NCBI GenBank assembly: GCA_021791545.1
Contig: JAJYWL010000016.1
Location: 87,545 to 151,544, forward strand
DNA from: a bacterium
GTDB taxonomy: Bacteria; Patescibacteriota; Microgenomatia; Levybacterales; UBA12049
Reading direction: 5' to 3'
Length of the DNA stretch: 64,000 nucleotides
Part shown: in pieces, positions 23,221 to 38,026 of the stretch
Position numbering within the stretch: position 1 is the stretch's first letter
Layout of the letters: every line of letters starts with the position of its first letter
The notes under the pieces: generated by a model
The model's database searches: none
Seen by the model: only the letters and a program-made list of their open reading frames with translations
Told to the model about the DNA's origin: nothing
Position numbers and translations under genes: made by a program

Positions 23221-23682
23221 GTGAACAACAAAATTTTTCCTTGTCTATGGTTTGATAGAGAGGCTGAAGAAGCTGCAAAGTTCTATACCTCTGTTTTTAG
23301 AAATTCAAAAATAATTACCACAACAAGATATGACGCTTCATCTGCAAAAGCTGCCGGTTTACCGGAGGGAACGGTAATGACTGTAATATTTGAACTCGAT
23401 GGAATGCAGTTTATGGCATTAAACGGAGGACCTTTGTTTAAATTTTCGGAAGCAATTTCGTTTGTTGTAAATTGTAAAGATCAGGAAGAAATAGATTACT
23501 ATTGGAAAGCTCTTTCTGCCCATCCAGAGAATGAGCAGTGTGGCTGGTTAAAAGATAAGTTCGGGCTTTCGTGGCAGATAGTTCCCGGAAATTTAGGAGA
23601 GCTTATTACTTCTCCTAAGGCAACAGCAAAACTTATGGATATGAAAAAGATTGTAATAGATGAATTGAAAAACGCACAGTAA
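23221..23682 (+). CDS. PhnB-like / VOC family protein (3-demethylubiquinone-9 3-methyltransferase-like domain)
   Basis: CLWFDREAEEAAKFY N-terminal signature of PhnB-like proteins. Confidence 0.65.
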   Translation: MNNKIFPCLWFDREAEEAAKFYTSVFRNSKIITTTRYDASSAKAAGLPEGTVMTVIFELDGMQFMALNGGPLFKFSEAISFVVNCKDQEEIDYYWKALSAHPENEQCGWLKDKFGLSWQIVPGNLGELITSPKATAKLMDMKKIVIDELKNAQ

Positions 23683-23696
23683 TTGAAAGGAAATAT

Positions 23697-24128
23697 ATGG
23701 TTCAACTTTATCCTTATTTAAATTTTAACGGACAAGGACAAGAAGCAATGCAATTTTATCAATCGGTTCTGGGTGGGGATTTGAAAATCCAAACTTATGA
23801 AGAATCCGGACAGGCAAAAAAACCTGAAGAAAATAATCTTTTGATGCATGGAGAATTAAGAACAGATAACGGGATTATTTTTTATGCAGCTGACGGAAAT
23901 GAAGAACATAAGGTAGAAATGGGAAACAGCGTTCATATGAGTCTACAGGGAGATGATGAGGAGCTTTTGACAAAATATTTTAATGGTTTGTCTGAAGGAG
24001 GGAATGTTGAGTTTCCTTTGTCGAAGCAATTTTGGGGAGATACTTTCGGTATGTTTACGGATAAGTTTGGGATTCATTGGATGGTAAACATTACTTCTAA
24101 GGAAAGAATGAGTGGAGGTGAAAAATGA
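23697..24128 (+). CDS. PhnB-like / VOC family protein
   Basis: PYLNFNGQGQEAMQFYQSVLGG N-terminal PhnB-like signature. Confidence 0.6.
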   Translation: MVQLYPYLNFNGQGQEAMQFYQSVLGGDLKIQTYEESGQAKKPEENNLLMHGELRTDNGIIFYAADGNEEHKVEMGNSVHMSLQGDDEELLTKYFNGLSEGGNVEFPLSKQFWGDTFGMFTDKFGIHWMVNITSKERMSGGEK

Positions 24129-24520
24129 ATTTTATTTCAATTCTTCTTTTTTCGGAAAATCCGGAAAAGCTTTCAGATTTTTATTCAAAAGTTTTTCAAA
24201 AAGATCCTGATTGGTCCGAGAGTGGTTACTACGGATTTATGGTAGGCCAGTCGGTAATAACGATAGGCCCACACGATAAGGTAAAAGGAAAGAGCAAAAA
24301 TCCGGAAAGGATAATGCTTAATTTTGAAACAGAAGATGTTAAGGGTGAATTCGAAAGAGTAAAAGATATTGAGGGAGCAGAAGTTATAGCTGAACCTTAC
24401 TCGCCTGATGAGGAAGAAAAAACTTTTATTTCTACGCTTGCAGATCCTGACGGAAATTTTTTCCAGATAACTTCAACATGGGAAGAAATGTCTGAAGGTA
24501 TGGAAAACCTTTCAAACTAA
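24125..24520 (+). CDS. VOC/glyoxalase-like family protein
   Basis: Small protein with a VOC-like pattern (FYSKVF...ADPDGNFFQI). Confidence 0.45.
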   Translation: MNFISILLFSENPEKLSDFYSKVFQKDPDWSESGYYGFMVGQSVITIGPHDKVKGKSKNPERIMLNFETEDVKGEFERVKDIEGAEVIAEPYSPDEEEKTFISTLADPDGNFFQITSTWEEMSEGMENLSN

Positions 24521-25882: not shown

Positions 25883-26371
25883 ATGAAAAAATATCTTCAG
25901 ATAACTCTTATCCTAGGCGCTTTTGGACTATTGGTTATTTTTAGACAGTTAAGAGGATCCGAAACTCCCGTAATCGGCAAGCAAAATCAGAACTCTTTTG
26001 GCGTAGGACAGACACAGACACAAACACAAACAACAACTCCTACGGGAAGTCCTCAAAATCAAAATCAACCCCAAACCAGCGCAATGGCATATAAAGACGG
26101 GACTTACACAGGAAGTGTGGAAGACGCATTTTACGGAAATGTTCAGGTCCAAGTTATTGTAAGCGGAGGAAAGATAAGCGATGTTAATTTTCTCCAATAC
26201 CCAAATGACAATCAGACATCACAATTTGTAAATTCTCAGGCAATGCCCCTTCTAAAACAAGAAGCTTTACAAGCACAAAGTTCACAAGTTGATATTGTTT
26301 CGGGAGCTTCCGCGACGAGTCAGGCTTTTCAAGCTTCTCTTACCAACGCTTTAAATCAGGCAAAAATATAA
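25883..26371 (+). CDS. FMN-binding domain protein (NqrC/RnfG-like), membrane anchored
   Basis: N-terminal TM segment. FMN_bind signature (YKDGTYTGS...VDIVSGASATSQAF), including the flavinylation-site motif D-x-x-S-G-A-S. Confidence 0.7.
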   Translation: MKKYLQITLILGAFGLLVIFRQLRGSETPVIGKQNQNSFGVGQTQTQTQTTTPTGSPQNQNQPQTSAMAYKDGTYTGSVEDAFYGNVQVQVIVSGGKISDVNFLQYPNDNQTSQFVNSQAMPLLKQEALQAQSSQVDIVSGASATSQAFQASLTNALNQAKI

Positions 26372-27111
26372 TGAAAAAAACTGCGGTAATTATGGGGATG
26401 CCCGTAATTATAGAAATACTGGATAAAAATGCAAAAGAAAGCGATATTGACGAGGTCTTTAGTTACTTTGTCTCTATAGACGAAAAATTTAGTCCTTACA
26501 AAAATGATAGTGAAGTATCAAAAATTAATAGAAAAGAAATTGATGAGAGAAACTACAGTAAAGAGATGAAATATATATTAAAGGAAGCCGCAAGAACAAA
26601 GAAAGAAACAAACGGATATTTTGAAATAAATCTCAACGGTAAGTTCGATCCTTCGGGAATAGTTAAAGGGTATGCAATCTTTGAAGGGGCAAGAAAATTA
26701 AAAGCGAAAGGATTTAAGAATTATTACGTTGAAATTGCGGGGGATATTCAGGTTTCCGGAACGAATAAAGAAGATAAGTCTTGGAAAGTGGGAATTCGTA
26801 ATCCATTCAATCAGGAAGAAATAGTAAAAGTAGTTAACATTTCAGATAATGGAATTGCAACTTCAGGAAATTATATAAGGGGAAAGCATATTTTTAATCC
26901 GGTTTCTAATAAAGAAGCAGACGAGATTGCGAGTATAAGCGTAATTGCCAAAAACGTCTATGATGCAGACAGGTATGCAACTGCTGCGTTTGCCATGGGG
27001 GAGAAAGGAATATATTTTCTTGATAAACTTAAAGGAGTAGAGGGATACATGATAACAAAAGATAAAAAAGCAGTGTACACTAAAAATTTTGAAAAGTTCG
27101 TAATAAATTAA
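26371..27111 (+). CDS. apbE: FAD:protein FMN transferase
   Basis: The ApbE family pattern and its position between an FMN_bind protein and a flavoprotein membrane subunit support the call. It is 246 aa, shorter than typical ApbE. Confidence 0.7.
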   Translation: MKKTAVIMGMPVIIEILDKNAKESDIDEVFSYFVSIDEKFSPYKNDSEVSKINRKEIDERNYSKEMKYILKEAARTKKETNGYFEINLNGKFDPSGIVKGYAIFEGARKLKAKGFKNYYVEIAGDIQVSGTNKEDKSWKVGIRNPFNQEEIVKVVNISDNGIATSGNYIRGKHIFNPVSNKEADEIASISVIAKNVYDADRYATAAFAMGEKGIYFLDKLKGVEGYMITKDKKAVYTKNFEKFVIN

Positions 27112-27112
27112 A

Positions 27113-28636
27113 ATGAAATTCATAGATTCTATTTTGAACAGGGTTACAATGTACAGACTCACTCTGTATTATTTGATATTTTTGGTAGGTTCGGCTTCTC
27201 TTCTGAGTTTTCTTGGATTCTTTAAAACTTTTTCTTTTGATGATATCTTAATTTCATCAGGTATAGTCATTATTACTTCATATATTTCTAATTACATTTT
27301 CTCTAAGTTATTAAGTGCTCCAACGAATGTAGAATCTGTCTATATTACCGCCTTAATACTCGTACTCATAGTGCCGGTAAGGCTTCCAGTAGATCTTCCG
27401 TTTCTGGTTGCAGCTTCTGTTGTAGCAATGGCTTCTAAATATCTCTTAACTATTGAAAAGACTCATGTATTTAATCCCGCAGCTGTTTCTGTTGCTGCTA
27501 TTGCACTTCTTTCGCCGGAACATACCGCTACTTGGTGGATCGGGACTCCAATAATGTTCCCTTTTGTTTTGGCAGGAGGGTTATTGCTTATAAGAAAGAT
27601 TGAAAGAGCTAATATGGTTTTTACTTTTTTAATCGCTTATCTTGTCATTATCGGTTCGGCAACAATTCTTTCGGGAGGCTCAATATTTAAAGTTTGGGAA
27701 ATAAGTCTTTTAAGAACAGCTCTTTTATTCTTTGCTTTTGTAATGTTTACAGAACCCATTACTAGTCCTTCCGTTTCTAAATTTAGAGATTACTATGCTT
27801 ATGTTGTAGCCTTTTTTTATGCTACGCCACAACTAAATTTTTTAAGCATAGGACTTACTCCTGAAATAGCTCTTTTACTTGGCAACGTTTTTTCATATAT
27901 TGTTAATCCTAAATATAAATTGGTGCTTCCTTTAAAATTTACAAATTGGTTGTCTCCAACAACTGCAGAATTTGCTTTTGCTCTTCCCCAAAAAATTAAA
28001 TTCAATCCGGGACAATATATGGAATGGACCCTTCCTCACAAAAATACCGATTCTAGAGGCAATAGGAGATACTTTAGTATTTCATCAACGCCAAATGAGG
28101 AAGATCTAAAAGTTACAGTAAGATTTAATAATCCCTCAAGTTCTTATAAACAATTCTTAAGCAAGATGAGAGAAGGAGATAAAATCTTTGCGTCTCAGCT
28201 TTCAGGAGATTTCGTTTTGTCTGACGATCCTAAACCAATTGCCTTAATAGCAGGTGGAGTTGGAGTTGCTCCTTTTAAAAGTATGATACAGGATATTATT
28301 GAAAAAGGTATTAAAAAAGACATAATTTTAATTTATTCAAATAAAACGGAAGACGAAATAATTTTTAAAGATTTATTTGAGAAAGCTAAAGGTTATGGAG
28401 TAAAAACAGTTTATGTTTTGACGGATGTTGAACATCTTCCTTTAGGATGGACGGGAGAAAAAGGAAGATTAAATCAAGATAAAATAAGAGAGATTATTCC
28501 CGATTATAATCAAAGGATATTTTATCTTTCGGGGCCACAGCTCATGGTACAGTCTTTTCAGGAGATACTCAAAGAGATGGGAGTTAAGAGAACTCAGGTT
28601 AAGAAAGACTTCTTCCCTGGTTATGAAGAAAAGTGA
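27113..28636 (+). CDS. fusion of an RnfD/NqrB-like membrane domain and an NqrF-like FAD/NAD(P)-binding oxidoreductase domain
   Basis: The N-terminal polytopic domain has HVFNPAA and MFTEPITSP motifs resembling the NqrB/RnfD NPA and M-x-TDP-TSP blocks, plus GSATILSGGS. The C-terminus has RRYFSISS (RxYS FAD site) and GGVGVAPF (NAD site). Confidence 0.6.
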   Translation: MKFIDSILNRVTMYRLTLYYLIFLVGSASLLSFLGFFKTFSFDDILISSGIVIITSYISNYIFSKLLSAPTNVESVYITALILVLIVPVRLPVDLPFLVAASVVAMASKYLLTIEKTHVFNPAAVSVAAIALLSPEHTATWWIGTPIMFPFVLAGGLLLIRKIERANMVFTFLIAYLVIIGSATILSGGSIFKVWEISLLRTALLFFAFVMFTEPITSPSVSKFRDYYAYVVAFFYATPQLNFLSIGLTPEIALLLGNVFSYIVNPKYKLVLPLKFTNWLSPTTAEFAFALPQKIKFNPGQYMEWTLPHKNTDSRGNRRYFSISSTPNEEDLKVTVRFNNPSSSYKQFLSKMREGDKIFASQLSGDFVLSDDPKPIALIAGGVGVAPFKSMIQDIIEKGIKKDIILIYSNKTEDEIIFKDLFEKAKGYGVKTVYVLTDVEHLPLGWTGEKGRLNQDKIREIIPDYNQRIFYLSGPQLMVQSFQEILKEMGVKRTQVKKDFFPGYEEK

Positions 28637-28690: not shown

Positions 28691-29122
28691 ATGAATAAAA
28701 ACAGTCTTTATCTAGTAATAGGTGCTTTTGTAATCTTGATTCTTGTAGTTTGGGGATGGATAATTTTACACCCCTCAAAAGGAAAACCTATTTTCAGCTT
28801 TAATATTTCTCGTCCTACATTAAAGCCTTCTCCTACTCAATCTGGTCAGGCTCCTTCCGGTACAATTACCCCAAATACCACTTTATCGGGTAGTCTTGTA
28901 AGGAAAGGTCCTTCATCGGGAGAGGCCATAGGTTCCTGGCAGATATCCTCGGGAAATCGAATCGTAAAAATATTTATTACCCCTCAAAGTAAGTGTAACT
29001 ATGGGAAGGGACTTCAATTACCTTGCTCCGAAGAAAGTTTTCAAAACGGGGAAAACGTCAGTGTCAGCGGAGTAATGTCGGGGGATAATCTTATAATTTC
29101 GGCAATGTCTTTCTCTGGTTAA
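28691..29122 (+). CDS. hypothetical membrane-anchored/secreted protein
   Basis: N-terminal TM segment and an S/T/P-rich region. No recognisable family. Confidence 0.4.
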   Translation: MNKNSLYLVIGAFVILILVVWGWIILHPSKGKPIFSFNISRPTLKPSPTQSGQAPSGTITPNTTLSGSLVRKGPSSGEAIGSWQISSGNRIVKIFITPQSKCNYGKGLQLPCSEESFQNGENVSVSGVMSGDNLIISAMSFSG

Positions 29123-29125
29123 CTT

Positions 29126-29920
29126 ATGGAAGCAATAATCAAAGTAGAAAATCTTATTAAAAAATTTTCCAGTTTTACTGCAGTAGATAATATCTCTTTT
29201 AATATTGAAAAAGGAGAAAGGTTTGCATTCCTGGGTCCTAATGGAGCAGGTAAAAGTACAACTATAAAAATGCTTACAACTCTTCTTGACCCCACAAGCG
29301 GAACAATAGAAATTAACAGTTACAATCCAAATAAAAACAAAGATCTAGTGAGAAAATCTTTCGGGATAGTATTCCAAGACCCAAGCCTAGATGATGATTT
29401 AACAGCTTTGGAAAATATGGAATATCATGCAGTTTTATATAACATTCCTGCTAATCTAAGAAAAAAGCGAATAGAAGACCTTCTAAATTTTGTGGAGCTT
29501 TGGGATAGGCGAAATGATCTTGTAAAAAATTTTTCCGGAGGAATGAAGAGAAGGCTTGAGATAGCAAGGGGACTTTTACATCATCCCAAGATACTCTTTT
29601 TAGATGAGCCAACTTTGGGTCTAGATCCACAAACTAGAAATCACATGTGGAACTATATTAAGGATGTAAATAATAAAGAAGAAATGACAGTATTTTTTAC
29701 CACACATTATATGGAGGAAGCAGAAAAGATGGCGCAAAGGATTGCGATTATAGATAAAGGTAAAATAATTGCGATGGGAACAGCCGAAGAGTTAAAGAAA
29801 AAGACAGATACAAAAACCCTTGAAGATGCTTTTCTTAAACTAACCGGACATGAGATTAGGGAAGAAGAGGCGGGGGGAATTGACAGGATGAGAATGATGA
29901 GAAGGATGCATGGAAGATGA
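29126..29920 (+). CDS. ABC transporter ATP-binding protein
   Basis: Walker A (GPNGAGKST), ABC signature (FSGGMKRRLEIA), Walker B (LFLDEPT). Confidence 0.85.
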   Translation: MEAIIKVENLIKKFSSFTAVDNISFNIEKGERFAFLGPNGAGKSTTIKMLTTLLDPTSGTIEINSYNPNKNKDLVRKSFGIVFQDPSLDDDLTALENMEYHAVLYNIPANLRKKRIEDLLNFVELWDRRNDLVKNFSGGMKRRLEIARGLLHHPKILFLDEPTLGLDPQTRNHMWNYIKDVNNKEEMTVFFTTHYMEEAEKMAQRIAIIDKGKIIAMGTAEELKKKTDTKTLEDAFLKLTGHEIREEEAGGIDRMRMMRRMHGR

Positions 29921-30663
29921 AAGTAGTTTATATATTGTGGCTTAGGCAACTTAAAAAATATGTGAGATCCAGGTCAAGGATCATAGGGTCTTTAGGACAA
30001 CCTGTTTTATTTTTGATAGCTTTTGGTTTTGGTTTTGGCCCGGTCTTCCAAAGAGCAGGACAAGGAAATTACATTAATTTTTTGGCTCCGGGAATAATAT
30101 TAATGAGTGTTCTGTTCACGGCAATATTTTCAGGTATAGATCTGATTTGGGACAGACAGTTTGGATTTTTAAAAGAAACAATGGTTGCTCCGGTCTCAAG
30201 GTTTGAAATAATGTTAGGGAAAACTGCGGGAGGTGCAACAGTCGCAATGATACAGGGAATAGTTGTTTTTCTTTTAACATTAATTATTGGTTTCAGGCCT
30301 CATAATATTGCTATGCTTCCTACGGCTTTTTTGTTTCTTGTATTGGTTGCTTTACTTTTTACATCTCTAGGTACAGTTATCGCATCTACTCTTGAAGATA
30401 TGCAAGGATTCCAGTTAATTATGAATTTCTTGGTAATGCCAATATTCTTTTTATCAGGTGCTCTGTTTCCTCTTAATGGGTTGCCTTCCGCTTTAGCTCT
30501 TGTTACGAGAATAGACCCCTTAGCCTATGGAATAGACGGATTGAGAGGAGCTTTGATAGGTCAAAATATTTTTTCTTTAACTACCGATTTATCTATTTTG
30601 CTGGTTATTACCTTAGTTTTACTTTTATTAGGAAGTTATCTTTTTGAGAGGATTCAAATTTAA
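29917..30663 (+). CDS. ABC-2 type transporter permease
   Basis: Six-TM ABC-2 family pattern. It is translationally coupled to the upstream ATPase. Confidence 0.7.
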   Translation: MKVVYILWLRQLKKYVRSRSRIIGSLGQPVLFLIAFGFGFGPVFQRAGQGNYINFLAPGIILMSVLFTAIFSGIDLIWDRQFGFLKETMVAPVSRFEIMLGKTAGGATVAMIQGIVVFLLTLIIGFRPHNIAMLPTAFLFLVLVALLFTSLGTVIASTLEDMQGFQLIMNFLVMPIFFLSGALFPLNGLPSALALVTRIDPLAYGIDGLRGALIGQNIFSLTTDLSILLVITLVLLLLGSYLFERIQI

Positions 30664-34022: not shown

Positions 34023-34775
34023 ATGAGCGGAACAATTAATAAAATGAAAAATTTTTACATTGGAACTTCAGGTTACAATTATAAACATTGGAAAGAAGTT
34101 TTCTATCCTCGCGGACTTTCTTATTCTAAGTGGTTAAATTATTATTCCCAACATTTTTCTACGGTTGAAATTAATGCTACATTTTACGGCAATTTTAGAA
34201 GAACTGTTTTTGAGAAATGGAAAGAAGAGACAGGCGATGATTTTATATTTACCCTCAAAGGACCAAGGTTAATCACTCATACAAAGAAGTTAAATGATAT
34301 TGATGAAAGTTTAGGGATATTCTTGGGGAATACGGAAGGTTTAGGTAAAAAGTTGAATATGATTTTATGGCAATTCCCTCCAAGTTTTAAGTGTGAAACA
34401 GAAACGTTAGGCAGATTAAAAGAATTTAGAAATAAGCTCCCAAAAAACATAAGACAAGCTTTTGAGTTTAGGCATAAATCTTGGTATGAAACTAATATGA
34501 AAGAAGAATTACAAAAAAATAAAATAAATATTGTTATTGCCCAATCTAAAAGATTTCCTGAAGAAAAGAACATAAACGGAGACTTTTATTACATAAGATT
34601 TCATGGACCTCAAAGACTGTATTCTTCATCTTATTCTCCTAAAGAACTTTTGGAGTGGGCTAACTTTGTAAAGAACGAAACAGATAATAAAGATGTTTAT
34701 TGTTACTTTAATAATGATGTTAGGGGATTTGCAGTAAGAAATGCTAAAGAGCTTAGTGCGTTAGTTATTTCTTAA
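34023..34775 (+). CDS. DUF72 (YecE-like) family protein
   Basis: The N-terminal FYIGTSGYNYKHW and the overall pattern are typical of DUF72. Confidence 0.7.
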   Translation: MSGTINKMKNFYIGTSGYNYKHWKEVFYPRGLSYSKWLNYYSQHFSTVEINATFYGNFRRTVFEKWKEETGDDFIFTLKGPRLITHTKKLNDIDESLGIFLGNTEGLGKKLNMILWQFPPSFKCETETLGRLKEFRNKLPKNIRQAFEFRHKSWYETNMKEELQKNKINIVIAQSKRFPEEKNINGDFYYIRFHGPQRLYSSSYSPKELLEWANFVKNETDNKDVYCYFNNDVRGFAVRNAKELSALVIS

Positions 34776-37226
34776 TTTAATCCTTTCATTTATTTGAAGT
34801 TTTTCTAATGCTATCGCCAGATCTGATTCCTCATCTAGTACGGGTGACCAAATATCGCCTATTTTTTCAAGTCTTTCAAATATGTTTTCAATATTAAAAT
34901 CTTTTGGGTTAAGACCTATCTTTACTTCTTCCCATCTTAGTGGTGTCGATACAGATGCTTTTTCAACAGGCTTAAGGCTATATGGCGCAGCAATTGTTTG
35001 TCCATCTCTATTCTGTAGGAAATCAAGATAAACTTTTTTCTTTCTGTTTTGTGGATTTCTTTCAACGCTAGTGAAACTGGGAATTTTTCTATGAATTATT
35101 TTGCATAAAATTTCGGCAAATTGTCTGCTTTGTTTGAACGAATATCTTGATTTCAATGGAACGAAAATATGAAGTCCTGTTGCTCCCGATGTTTTACAAT
35201 AACTATTAAGGCCCACTGCGTCTAGGATTTCTTTACTCCTTATGGCTGTTTCAACTACATAATCAAAAGATATGTCGAGTGGATCAAGGTCTATTACCAG
35301 ATAATCTGGTTTATCCAGACTGATAATTCTTGAAAACCATGGATTTATCTCAATGCATCCGAGATTTGCCATATAGACCAGAGTTTCTTTGTTTTGACAA
35401 ATTATGTAATTAATATTTTTTTCTTCCGACCCGGAATAAATGTCTTTAGTTTCAATCCATTTAGGAAAAAGTCCTCTTGTATCTTTTTGCCAGAATTTTT
35501 CTCCATTAATCCCATTTGGAAATCTATGAAGATTTTCAGGTCGATCTTTAAGGTAGGGAAGGATATAGGGCGAAATTTTATAGTAAAATTTTACGAGGTC
35601 TCTTTTGGTATAACCATCAGTTGGCCAATAAGTTTTTTCAAGATTAGAAAGTTTAAAATTTATCTTTTCGTCTTTTACGGTTTTTGCATTAACTGCTTTT
35701 TCTTTTCTTACGTTTTTTGGATCAAGGTCTTCCCTAAATCCTAAAAATTTAGGCTGACGCATTACTCCTTCATTTGTCCATTCTGTAAACTCCACCTCGC
35801 AAACAATAAGGGGTTTAATCCATGTAACCGGCATATCGGTTTTGGGAGGGCTTAAAAACGGACTTTCTTTTTGGCTAAGGTTTTCAAGCTTTTCTCCAAT
35901 TTCTTTCAATTCTGTATCGTTAAATCCTCCTCCCGAATTCCCTATATATATAAAATTTTTTTCATCATCATAGACACCAAGAATAAGAGAACCAAAGTAT
36001 TTTCTTGAACCACGTGGTTTAGTAAATCCTCCTATTACGGCTTCTTGTTGAAGGCGGCTTTTTATTTTTACCCAGTCTTCTGTTCTTTTTCCCTCTAAAT
36101 ATCTACTTTCCAAATTTTTTCCTATTATTCCCTCAAGTTTTTGTTTTGCTGCGGCATTAAAAAATGAAACTCCTCTTTCACTAATGAAATCGCTAATTTT
36201 TATGTTAGGAAGGTTGGGAAGTACATTCTTTAGTATGTCTTTCCTTTTATATAAAGGAAGATTTGTTAGATCAGAATCTTTGAAATATAGAATATCGAAT
36301 ATGTAATATACTAAATTTCCTTTTTCGGATCTTACAAAATTTTGAAGAAGCTGAAAACTTGATTTCCCATTTTTATCTAAGACTACGACTTCACCGTCCA
36401 AAATCATGTTTTCTTTTATTTCCTTTAAAGATTCTTGAATAGGTTTAAATTTTTCGTTAAAAGAAATATTATTTCTTGAAAGTAAGTTTGCCTTTCCATT
36501 ATTTATTACAGAAATTATCCTATAACCGTCCCATTTAATTTCAAATATCCAATTTCTGTTGTCAAAAGGATTTTTTATGAGGGTTGAAAGCATGGGCTTG
36601 ATAAAATCAGGCATTTTCTTTTTTGTAGCTCCGTCTAAATTTAGCGATTCTTTTGGTTTTTCTCCATTTTTTATTTCGTCCATACTTCTTCCGGTTTTTA
36701 CAGAAAGGTCCTGTTTTATGAGTTCATCTTCGTTTGCAAATTCATCTTTTCCTTTCATCAGCATCCATGAATTTTCGGAAGTATTTATTTTAAATAAGTG
36801 ATATTCCCCCTTAATTTTATTGCCGTTTAAGATTATCTTAAGATTTCCTTTTTCAAGTTCATCCAGTAATGTTTTCCCAATATCTCCCTTTGTCTCCAGC
36901 GGCATATAATTGCCCTGGTCCCAAACCATTACTGTACCCGCCCCATAATTTCTTTTTGGAATTGTTCCTTCGAAATCTCTGTAGTCGTACGGATGGTCTT
37001 CCACCATCATTGCGAGCCTTTTTATATTGGGATCGGAGGATGGTCCCTTGGGTATTGCCCAACTTTTGAGAACTCCTTCCATTTCCAAGCGGAAATCGTA
37101 GTGAAGATGAGAAGCTTGGTGTTTTTGAATAACAAATCTTAGGACACCCTTATTTTTTGTTGGTTTTCCTTGTGGTTCGGGCGTTTCATCAAATCTTCTT
37201 TTTTCATTATATTTGGCTAGGCTCAT
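34761..37226 (-). CDS. ligD: ATP-dependent DNA ligase D (NHEJ) with phosphoesterase, ligase and primase-polymerase domains
   Basis: N-terminal PE domain (RFVIQKHQASHLHYDFRLE). Ligase motif I KxDG (EIKWDGYR). C-terminal LigD polymerase domain. Confidence 0.85.
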   Translation of the reverse strand: MSLAKYNEKRRFDETPEPQGKPTKNKGVLRFVIQKHQASHLHYDFRLEMEGVLKSWAIPKGPSSDPNIKRLAMMVEDHPYDYRDFEGTIPKRNYGAGTVMVWDQGNYMPLETKGDIGKTLLDELEKGNLKIILNGNKIKGEYHLFKINTSENSWMLMKGKDEFANEDELIKQDLSVKTGRSMDEIKNGEKPKESLNLDGATKKKMPDFIKPMLSTLIKNPFDNRNWIFEIKWDGYRIISVINNGKANLLSRNNISFNEKFKPIQESLKEIKENMILDGEVVVLDKNGKSSFQLLQNFVRSEKGNLVYYIFDILYFKDSDLTNLPLYKRKDILKNVLPNLPNIKISDFISERGVSFFNAAAKQKLEGIIGKNLESRYLEGKRTEDWVKIKSRLQQEAVIGGFTKPRGSRKYFGSLILGVYDDEKNFIYIGNSGGGFNDTELKEIGEKLENLSQKESPFLSPPKTDMPVTWIKPLIVCEVEFTEWTNEGVMRQPKFLGFREDLDPKNVRKEKAVNAKTVKDEKINFKLSNLEKTYWPTDGYTKRDLVKFYYKISPYILPYLKDRPENLHRFPNGINGEKFWQKDTRGLFPKWIETKDIYSGSEEKNINYIICQNKETLVYMANLGCIEINPWFSRIISLDKPDYLVIDLDPLDISFDYVVETAIRSKEILDAVGLNSYCKTSGATGLHIFVPLKSRYSFKQSRQFAEILCKIIHRKIPSFTSVERNPQNRKKKVYLDFLQNRDGQTIAAPYSLKPVEKASVSTPLRWEEVKIGLNPKDFNIENIFERLEKIGDIWSPVLDEESDLAIALEKLQINERIKLRNN

Positions 37227-38026
37227 GTTTGATTGTATATTCTTTTTGGTTCTTCTTTTTCTTTTTCTTGTTCAAGACTTTTCTTTAAAAGCGCCATCAA
37301 ATCCGTTACGTTGGATGTTTCCTGGATAGTTTCTTCTTTGGCTGTTATTTTTTCTCCTTTCGCTTTTTCGTCTATTAGTTTTTTCAAATCTTCAGTATAG
37401 GTATCATGAAATTCTTCGGGCTTAAAATCTCCGCTTAATTGGTTTATTAAGGCAAGAGCCATTTCAATCTCTTTATCGCTAACCTCAAGGTTTGGTGCCT
37501 TAATTTCTTTTGCATCTTTTATCTCGCTTTGAAATCTCATTTGATTTAGGACGATAACATTGTCTAGGGGTTTTATGATTCCCAGCCTTTGTCTGGTTCT
37601 TATGACAAATTTTGCTATCCCTACTTTCTTACTTTTTCTTAAAGCTTCTATCATTAGAGAGTATGCTTTTTGAGCAGATTTGTCGGGTTCGAGATAATAG
37701 GGTTTCTCGTAGTAAACAGAATCTATTTCACCCTCATTTACAAACTCCAGCACATCTATTGTTTTAGTTTTTTTGACGTTAGCTTTAATAAAATCATCTT
37801 GTTGTAATATTACATAATCTCCTTTTTCATATTCATAACCTTTTACAAGTTCGTTATAGGGAACTTCTTTTTCTTCGGTTTTACACACTTTCGCATATCT
37901 AATGGGGGAATAGTCTTTCTTATGAAGAAGATCAAAATCCAAACCCTCATCTTTCGAAGCGGTATACATTTTTATGGGAATATTAACGAGCCCGAAACTT
38001 AAAGCTCCTGACCATATAGCTCTCAT
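37223..38026 (-). CDS. ku: Ku protein (NHEJ DNA end-binding)
   Basis: MRAIWSGALSFGLVNIPIKMY N-terminus is typical of bacterial Ku. Its stop overlaps the ligD start (operon). Confidence 0.85.
   Translation of the reverse strand: MRAIWSGALSFGLVNIPIKMYTASKDEGLDFDLLHKKDYSPIRYAKVCKTEEKEVPYNELVKGYEYEKGDYVILQQDDFIKANVKKTKTIDVLEFVNEGEIDSVYYEKPYYLEPDKSAQKAYSLMIEALRKSKKVGIAKFVIRTRQRLGIIKPLDNVIVLNQMRFQSEIKDAKEIKAPNLEVSDKEIEMALALINQLSGDFKPEEFHDTYTEDLKKLIDEKAKGEKITAKEETIQETSNVTDLMALLKKSLEQEKEKEEPKRIYNQT

Follow-up and report, generated by a model that had tools for sequence, protein, structure and literature searches.

In a 64-kb stretch of DNA (the window) from contig JAJYWL010000016.1 of a bacterium of the Candidate Phyla Radiation (CPR), three genes at positions 25883-28636 encode an FMN_bind protein, an ApbE flavin transferase and a fusion of an RnfD/NqrB-like membrane domain with an FNR-type reductase domain. 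This locus probably belongs, as a typical case, to the flavinylation-associated NQR/RNF-like system that is already published, and would constitute a two-subunit transmembrane electron conduit accompanied by its maturase. The name "NQR/RNF-like system" was given to flavinylation-associated clusters with a PF03116-PF00175 fusion, found in 127 genomes as first reported (Méheust et al., 2021, eLife; PMC8238504). An Nqr/Rnf-like membrane subunit without the conserved flavinylation threonine of NqrB/RnfD was subsequently described (Huang et al., 2024, mSystems; PMC11334425). The locus in the window has all of these traits. PF03116 and PF00175 occupy the N-terminal and C-terminal parts of one protein, the FMN_bind and ApbE genes directly precede the fusion gene on its strand, with stop and start codons that overlap or adjoin, and the membrane subunit lacks the flavinylation threonine, with its linker deleted. 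An earlier note on this DNA had proposed a minimal Nqr/Rnf-like module, made up of two polypeptides and their maturase, for electron transfer from NAD(P)H to an extracytoplasmic flavin mononucleotide (FMN) carrier, and this core reading is the same as the published one. The note had not recognised the form as canonical Nqr or Rnf, implying novelty; the form is in fact already described in both papers. The features of the locus are as follows.

25883-26371, + strand: FMN_bind subunit, NqrC/RnfG-like, 162 amino acids (Pfam PF04205)
26291-26311, + strand: flavinylation motif D137-I-V-S-G-A-S143 of the FMN_bind subunit (motif match)
26371-27111, + strand: ApbE, FAD:protein FMN transferase, 246 amino acids (Pfam PF02424)
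27113-28636, + strand: fusion protein, RnfD/NqrB-like plus FNR-type, 507 amino acids (Pfam PF03116 + PF00175)
27113-27910, + strand: RnfD/NqrB-like membrane domain of the fusion protein, residues 1-266
27512-27547, + strand: truncated "five-helix linker" of the fusion protein, SPEHTATWWIGT, residues 134-145, a predicted extracytoplasmic loop (profile alignment/hhalign)
27917-28636, + strand: FNR-type FAD/NAD(P)H domain of the fusion protein, predicted to be cytoplasmic, residues 269-507

The three co-directional open reading frames (ORFs) proposed by the earlier note are all found at these positions. The stop codon of the FMN_bind gene overlaps the ATG of the ApbE gene by 1 nt (26371), and a gap of 1 nt separates the ApbE gene from the fusion gene (27111/27113). 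The ApbE start is translationally coupled to the FMN_bind stop, and the junctions are typical of a translationally coupled operon. Promoter and terminator scans of the cluster yielded no more sites than shuffled sequence, and no FMN riboswitch or other Rfam element was found near it. The check by Pfam hidden Markov models that the note had suggested bore out its domain assignments: FMN_bind (PF04205, E 7.8e-11, 42.9 bits), ApbE (PF02424, E 1.5e-42, 146 bits), NQR2_RnfD_RnfE (PF03116) and NAD_binding_1 (PF00175, E 2.7e-16) were all matched, and FAD_binding_6 was weak (19 bits, below cutoff). Every peptide block that had been quoted is present: VDIVSGASAT at residues 136-145 of the FMN_bind subunit, and HVFNPAA (118-124), GSATILSGGS (181-190), MFTEPITSP (211-219), RRYFSISS (318-325) and GGVGVAPF (381-388) in the fusion protein. 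The FMN_bind protein does carry an intact flavinylation motif (DIVSGAS, residues 137-143). The second gene does encode an ApbE flavin transferase, which aligns to solved ApbE/FmnB structures over residues 3-238 in addition to its PF02424 match.

The N-terminal part of the fusion protein scores as NqrB/RnfD-like, as had been claimed: PF03116 exceeds its gathering cutoff (31.4 bits against 27.7, residues 46-142), and profile-profile alignment (hhalign) of the membrane domain with four RnfD sequences gave 94.5% probability over 243 columns. An AlphaFold2 single-chain model of the fusion protein, computed with 57 homologues, is of high confidence (predicted local distance difference test 87.8, predicted template modelling score 0.83). 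It consists of ten membrane helices followed by a beta-barrel and a Rossmann-type domain, and suggests that the membrane domain is oriented with both N- and C-terminus inside. The C-terminal domain carries an RxYS-type motif for flavin adenine dinucleotide (FAD), R318-R-Y-F-S322, and a GGxGxxP nucleotide motif at 381-387. Its NCBIfam scores are higher for flavohemoprotein (100 bits) and BenC (84 bits) than for NqrF (54 bits), and Pfam detected no Fer2 domain on the fusion protein. The earlier assignment of this half to the FNR-type reductases therefore stands, and the specific likeness to NqrF does not, the domain being generic FNR. As for the N-terminus, public gene calls begin at Met13 (27149, 495 amino acids), while the ATG at 27113 gives 507 amino acids. 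In RnfD and NqrB the N-terminal arm is the binding site for the cytoplasmic subunit. Three residues of the upstream segment, D5, L8 and T12, are at least 95% conserved in a family set of 84 distinct members from CPR and Chloroflexota, and the true product is therefore likely to be the 507-residue protein starting at 27113.

The same family set was used to examine conservation throughout the membrane domain. In RsxD and three solved RnfD chains, the threonine that carries covalent FMN lies in a D-G-x-[ST]-x-A-T-[PA]-L motif, within a long extracytoplasmic linker between the two five-helix halves. In the Rnf structure this "five-helix linker" comprises RnfD residues 140-190, with Thr153 (PMC9588780). 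Profile alignment to Vibrio cholerae NqrB pairs residues 59-127 of the fusion protein with NqrB 144-210 and residues 149-250 with NqrB 279-378, leaving 21 residues (128-148) opposite the 68 residues of NqrB 211-278 that include T236. Likewise, in the hhalign alignment the RsxD segment from after W142 to about residue 225, which holds DGISQAT187PL, is almost wholly gapped in the fusion protein. The short outer loop has the consensus Q-x-A-[S/T]-W-W-V-G, and its counterpart in the RnfD alignment, Q-M-T-S-W, precedes the flavinylation site. Neither [DN]xx[ST]xA[ST] nor [ST]GA[ST] occurs in the membrane domain of any of the 84 family members. The alignments thus indicate that the loop of about 50-70 residues bearing the flavinylated threonine of RnfD/NqrB is deleted in the fusion protein, which by its sequence has no covalent-FMN site.

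We also considered A139-[S/T]140 and G144-T145 of the short outer loop as a vestigial flavinylation site. In the hhalign alignment long gaps flank T145-P146 on both sides, and this isolated pair of residues faces RsxD T187-P188. The idea was rejected: QxA[ST]WW corresponds to RnfD QMTSW, a segment that lies before the site, 10 of the 84 members have N, V or I at position 140, and only two of the five motif positions fit. The earlier note had counted a covalently flavinylated membrane subunit among the components, and had itself proposed to judge the assignment by the presence of a flavinylatable Thr or Ser in an extracytoplasmic loop. With the carrier loop deleted and the motif absent from the whole family set, this component has to be dropped. 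The same is true of GSATILSGGS as an NqrB/RnfD-like block, since it lies in a transmembrane helix that varies within the family.

The inner flavin site presents a different picture. The riboflavin ligands of NqrB are T162, N200, N203 and D346, together with backbone contacts (Hau et al., 2023; PMC10643135, Extended Data Fig. 6), and the alignment to NqrB places T79, H118, N121 and E214 of the fusion protein at these four positions. All four (T/S79, H118, N121 and E214) are invariant in 84/84 family members. The proposed gate residue NqrB F338 corresponds to F206, which is conserved in at least 95% of the family. These residues suggest that the inner, non-covalent flavin site is retained. Since the covering linker with its flavinylation threonine is deleted, the outer pocket, which that linker caps in RnfD/NqrB, would be open, and the FMN of a partner subunit would be able to dock there. 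A corresponding proposal exists for the published system: an AlphaFold-Multimer model of a Ktedonobacter homologue puts the flavinylation site of the partner at the non-covalent flavin site of the membrane subunit, and the partner's covalent FMN is proposed to sample that site (PMC11334425).

The fusion architecture and the gene trio are conserved far beyond chance. More than 3,700 database proteins have the fusion architecture, and a scan with one genome per species found that at least 593 species genomes encode a relative of the fusion protein. The nearest relatives, in Levybacteria/Microgenomates, are 57-61% identical. The CPR part of 80 fetched loci comprises Levy-, Ames-, Gottesman-, Davies-, Doudna-, Wirth- and Nomurabacteria, WWE3, Saccharimonadales and Paceibacteria, and the Chloroflexota part comprises Anaerolineales, Chloroflexia, Herpetosiphonaceae and Oscillochloris. 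Both the FMN_bind and the ApbE gene stand beside the fusion gene in 75 of 87 loci, and the order FMN_bind-ApbE-fusion on one strand occurs in 59 of the 87, the exceptions being mostly at contig ends. When the neighbouring ORFs of 84 loci were clustered, no broadly conserved gene apart from FMN_bind and ApbE was found.

For cofactor content, direction of electron flow, topology and acceptor, we propose the following scheme. The FAD of the cytoplasmic FNR domain would be reduced by NAD(P)H. An electron would then pass to a non-covalent flavin at the putative riboflavin site formed by T79, H118, N121 and E214, within the half of the RnfD/NqrB-like domain that faces the cytoplasm. From there it would reach the FMN that ApbE would have joined covalently to Ser143 of the FMN_bind subunit, a membrane-anchored partner whose FMN would be docked in the outer pocket left without its cap. 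The reduced FMN would finally depart on its flexible tether and reduce an external acceptor. This path would equal the NADH -> RnfC -> RnfD (riboflavin, FMN) -> RnfG branch of Rnf, with the FNR domain in place of RnfC and without the return path through RnfA, RnfE and RnfB. In the Rnf structure, the FMN of RnfD is 7.7 Å from riboflavin, and riboflavin is 11.7 Å from the FeS cluster of RnfC (PMC9588780). These distances show that the membrane can be bridged by one RnfD-type subunit. The host being a fermentative CPR bacterium without a respiratory chain, such a module would likely act as an NAD(P)H sink, or provide reducing power at the surface, for example for the reduction of ferric iron. Several points weigh against an outward electron conduit. 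The clustering of neighbouring ORFs revealed no acceptor gene conserved near the module. Flavin occupancy of the membrane domain is predicted from conserved residues, and NqrB N200 is His here. We found no biochemical characterisation of any family member in the literature. Finally, none of the orthologues of the cognate ApbE has a signal peptide, which fits an extracytoplasmic substrate poorly.

If the RnfD/NqrB-like domain had kept ion conduction, the module could be a redox-coupled cation transporter, in which NAD(P)H-driven export is coupled to Na+/H+, or a gradient drives or gates the electrons; the earlier note had named an ion pump as its alternative. The conserved residues of the domain do not discriminate between this possibility and the electron conduit, because the same residues bind riboflavin. 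Current pumping models centre on NqrD/E (RnfA/E) and the cycle of a moving NqrC, neither of which the module has. It has also lost the linker that is proposed to close off the outer half-channel, and NqrB D397 has no acidic counterpart, position 265 being Asn or Ser. We consider cation transport unlikely.

The electron conduit requires the FMN_bind domain to be outside, and here the two partner proteins point in different directions. The FMN_bind subunit begins with MKK and a hydrophobic anchor (residues ~4-20; 17 residues long, mean hydropathy 2.2), which a signal-peptide predictor would probably call, followed by a Q/T/S/P-rich linker (~28-68) and the FMN_bind domain (84-158). Ser143, 19 residues before the C-terminus, is the predicted attachment site of phosphoester-linked FMN. 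All 73 distinct FMN_bind orthologues have the motif [DNS]xx[ST]GA[ST], with D or N at the first position in 70, and in 72 of the 73 it lies 18-21 residues from the C-terminus; the motif of the subunit described here agrees with the ApbE target motif given in PMC8238504. The anchor-helix sequence KK[FY]xLSxxV is conserved among the orthologues. Lysine and arginine are enriched N-terminal to the anchor (2-5 before versus 0-3 after in the 73 orthologues), and the Chloroflexota orthologues have N-tails of 15-20 residues carrying 4-5 positive charges. Because of this enrichment, the predicted topology of the subunit is N-in/C-out.

The ApbE protein, by contrast, has no signal or lipoprotein sequence, and its longest possible ORF begins with MKKTAVIMGMP, the first strand of the fold. 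Residue 3, which stands opposite residue 24 of Listeria FmnB (chain 7esa) in the alignment, is where the catalytic fold starts. The protein is compact, with about 40 residues of a helical subdomain absent compared to solved ApbEs, and is nevertheless complete. A hydrophobic N-terminal leader was absent from 74 of 75 ApbE orthologues from CPR and Chloroflexota, even when the longest possible ORF was taken, and the segment flagged in the remaining one is the first beta-strand and not a leader, so that effectively 75/75 are leaderless. We found no mention of this uniformly leaderless cognate ApbE in the searchable text of PMC8238504 or PMC11334425.

One tentative explanation, possible although we would not favour it, is that flavinylation takes place in the cytoplasm and that the FMN_bind subunit is exported already flavinylated. 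Its basis is the leaderless ApbE, the N-in signal anchor and surface-type linker of the substrate, and the position of the target Ser/Thr close to the C-terminus in nearly all orthologues. If this were true, ApbE would modify the C-terminal motif before or during the passage of the tail through the Sec/YidC machinery, and the export of FAD, which other extracytoplasmic flavinylation systems require, would become unnecessary. ApbE might also be exported through a pathway that has not been recognised. As another way to reconcile a leaderless ApbE with an outside substrate, we considered that the twin-arginine translocation (Tat) system exports the flavoprotein after folding; this is unlikely, the anchors having KK or RK and not RR.

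Alternatively, the FMN_bind domain may be cytoplasmic and the published topology of the whole complex wrong. In this case the subunit would have an N-out anchor, would be modified by the leaderless ApbE and remain in the cytoplasm, and would shuttle electrons between the FAD of the FNR domain and the membrane domain. At the open outer pocket of the latter, free flavin, quinone or a similar diffusible molecule would act as acceptor. Known leaderless ApbEs, such as the second ApbE of K. pneumoniae (PMC12052999), do act on cytoplasmic substrates, and the ApbE proteins of this family start at the first strand of the catalytic fold. The distribution of charges around the anchor argues otherwise, since the positive-inside rule favours N-in/C-out. 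So does the long S/T/P/Q-rich linker, which is typical of surface tethers, and the published AlphaFold-Multimer model docks the domain on the extracytosolic face (PMC11334425). We therefore regard a cytoplasmic FMN_bind domain as improbable.

The electron conduit also presupposes that the module stands on its own. When E. coli RsxA, RsxB, RsxC, RsxD, RsxG and RsxE were compared with all ORFs of the window (phmmer), no match was obtained at E <= 10. This agrees with the earlier statement that no NqrA/D/E or RnfA/B/C/E subunit is adjacent, there being no RsxA/B/C/E-like ORF in the window. Scans of further window genes gave housekeeping, envelope and repair functions, as is usual for a small CPR genome, and no Nqr or Rnf subunit; among these genes are tRNA synthetases, RuvB, purine genes, primase, RpoD, MurJ, PilO, sortase, and Ku with LigD. 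The window thus does not encode RnfA, B, C, D, G and E together as in canonical Rnf, nor the six subunits NqrA-F of canonical Na+-NQR with a 2Fe-2S NqrF (no Fer2 domain, and no NqrD/E-family homologue in the window). Respiratory complexes are generally missing from CPR genomes. A reading of the three genes as scattered or degenerate parts of a standard Rnf/Nqr, with the other subunits elsewhere in the genome, would be compatible with an inspection that covered 64 kb of the genome and with the Pfam name of the membrane domain; this reading is hardly tenable, given that an FNR fusion without the flavinylation loop is kept in thousands of proteins and hundreds of genomes, and is no decayed copy, that the window holds housekeeping genes instead of further subunits, and that the literature treats the system as separate (PMC8238504).

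Several neighbouring genes deserve mention. A 143-amino acid ORF (28691-29122) between the fusion gene and an ABC transporter encodes a protein that starts with an anchor, continues with an S/T/P-rich linker and ends in a small domain containing two cysteines (C102, C112), without Pfam or NCBIfam matches. It was rejected as a system component, being present only in the same species (3 loci). The ATP-binding cassette (ABC) pair that the earlier note had placed directly downstream is there, as a DrrA/DrrB-type ABC-2 exporter (29126-30663; TIGR01188 318 bits, TIGR01247 218 bits) with 3-nt and overlapping junctions, and may be co-transcribed with the module at this locus. It is not a conserved partner of the module: a DrrB-like permease is found in 4 loci, and the ATPase matches are generic. 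Upstream of the cluster, 23221-24520 encodes three successive small glyoxalase/PhnB-like proteins (3-dmu-9_3-mt, Glyoxalase), then a CBS-pair protein and a DinB-like protein, which may represent a stress or detoxification neighbourhood. On the minus strand, 34761-38026 encodes a non-homologous end joining pair, Ku and a multidomain LigD (ligase, LigD_N, Prim-Pol), in an apparently small CPR genome.

At other loci (such as L058, L068, L070 and L075), MacB/HlyD/ABC-ATPase efflux parts and a histidine kinase paired with an OmpR-type response regulator lie 2-3 kb from the fusion gene. Two-component systems, MacB/HlyD-type efflux parts and a hydrolase, found in 10-19 of 84 loci at this distance, were examined for a clue to the acceptor and rejected as not belonging to the core. 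On a Levybacteria-like contig, an FTR1 iron permease and an Rrf2 regulator (L007, 272-1509, minus strand) are located about 3 kb upstream of the cluster, which recalls the association of the VIT1 iron transporter with six clusters (PMC8238504). One Levyibacteriota metagenome-assembled genome (DAHWUP01, clean1537; L010 and L083) carries the fusion gene twice, as paralogues with 57% and 46% identity to the query; an FMN_bind gene lies beside the second copy, and ApbE was not detected in the fetched flank of that copy. Many records of metagenome-assembled genomes titled "uncultured Gammaproteobacteria bacterium" (L016, L017, L019, L023, L024 and others) contain CPR-like forms of the cluster with 47-54% identity to the query, and these titles are probably placeholders or wrong taxonomy.

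CPR/Patescibacteria are thought to be fermentative and to lack respiratory chains. A self-contained conduit from NAD(P)H to the cell surface in hundreds of CPR genomes is thus one of the few candidate membrane redox devices in these organisms, and it could regenerate NAD(P)+ as a sink, act as a ferric reductase, or connect the cell with hosts or minerals. Among known relatives of the Rnf/Nqr pumps it is the smallest, having a single membrane subunit and no cofactors other than flavins, and this minimal make-up would render the two-subunit module a tractable model for how RnfD/NqrB moves electrons, and perhaps ions, across the membrane. The idea of an electron conduit is already published as a bioinformatic prediction, and the value of the system now lies in its biochemistry and in the puzzle of ApbE localisation.

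Compared with known systems, the resemblance to NOX/FRE enzymes (e.g. SpNOX, PDB 8qq7) is an analogy and not homology, since these have an unrelated six-helix di-haem ferric-reductase domain, against the ten-helix flavin-binding RnfD fold here. Listeria-type extracellular electron transfer (Ndh2, EetA/B, DmkA/B, PplA, FmnB) shares an ApbE-flavinylated, surface-tethered FMN_bind protein as last carrier, and the FMN_bind subunit described here has a weak NCBIfam match to PplA. There too, a monoderm fermenter passes electrons of NADH in the cytoplasm on to acceptors outside. In Listeria, electrons cross the membrane via the quinone pool and EetA/B, whereas here a single fusion protein spans it; FmnB is a secreted lipoprotein, with FAD exported by a dedicated energy-coupling factor (ECF) transporter (PMC9973259), whereas ApbE here has no leader. 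Relative to Na+-NQR (NqrA-F; PDB 7xk3, 8a1u), the module lacks NqrA, NqrD, NqrE, the 2Fe-2S domain, an obvious quinone-site N-terminal region and the FMN on the B-like domain, and its FNR module is fused to that domain, while in Na+-NQR it sits, as NqrF, at NqrD/E and not on NqrB. The RnfC-RnfD-RnfG branch of Rnf (PDB 7zc6, 8ahx, 9eri) differs from it in that RnfA, RnfE, RnfB and the Fe-S clusters are missing here, RnfC is replaced by the fused FNR domain, and the five-helix linker with the covalent-FMN threonine is deleted; the path is semicircular in Rnf and would be open-ended here. From the published NQR/RNF-like system, in turn, the locus shows no essential difference. The two agree in domain architecture, in the cluster with ApbE and FMN_bind, in the proposed one-way flow from NAD(P)H to the outside, and in the taxa concerned, CPR being named explicitly and the modelled example, Ktedonobacter, belonging to Chloroflexota. 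To that picture our analysis adds a much wider distribution in CPR and Chloroflexota, over at least 593 species genomes (versus 127), the invariance of the riboflavin-site residues, and a cognate ApbE that is uniformly leaderless.

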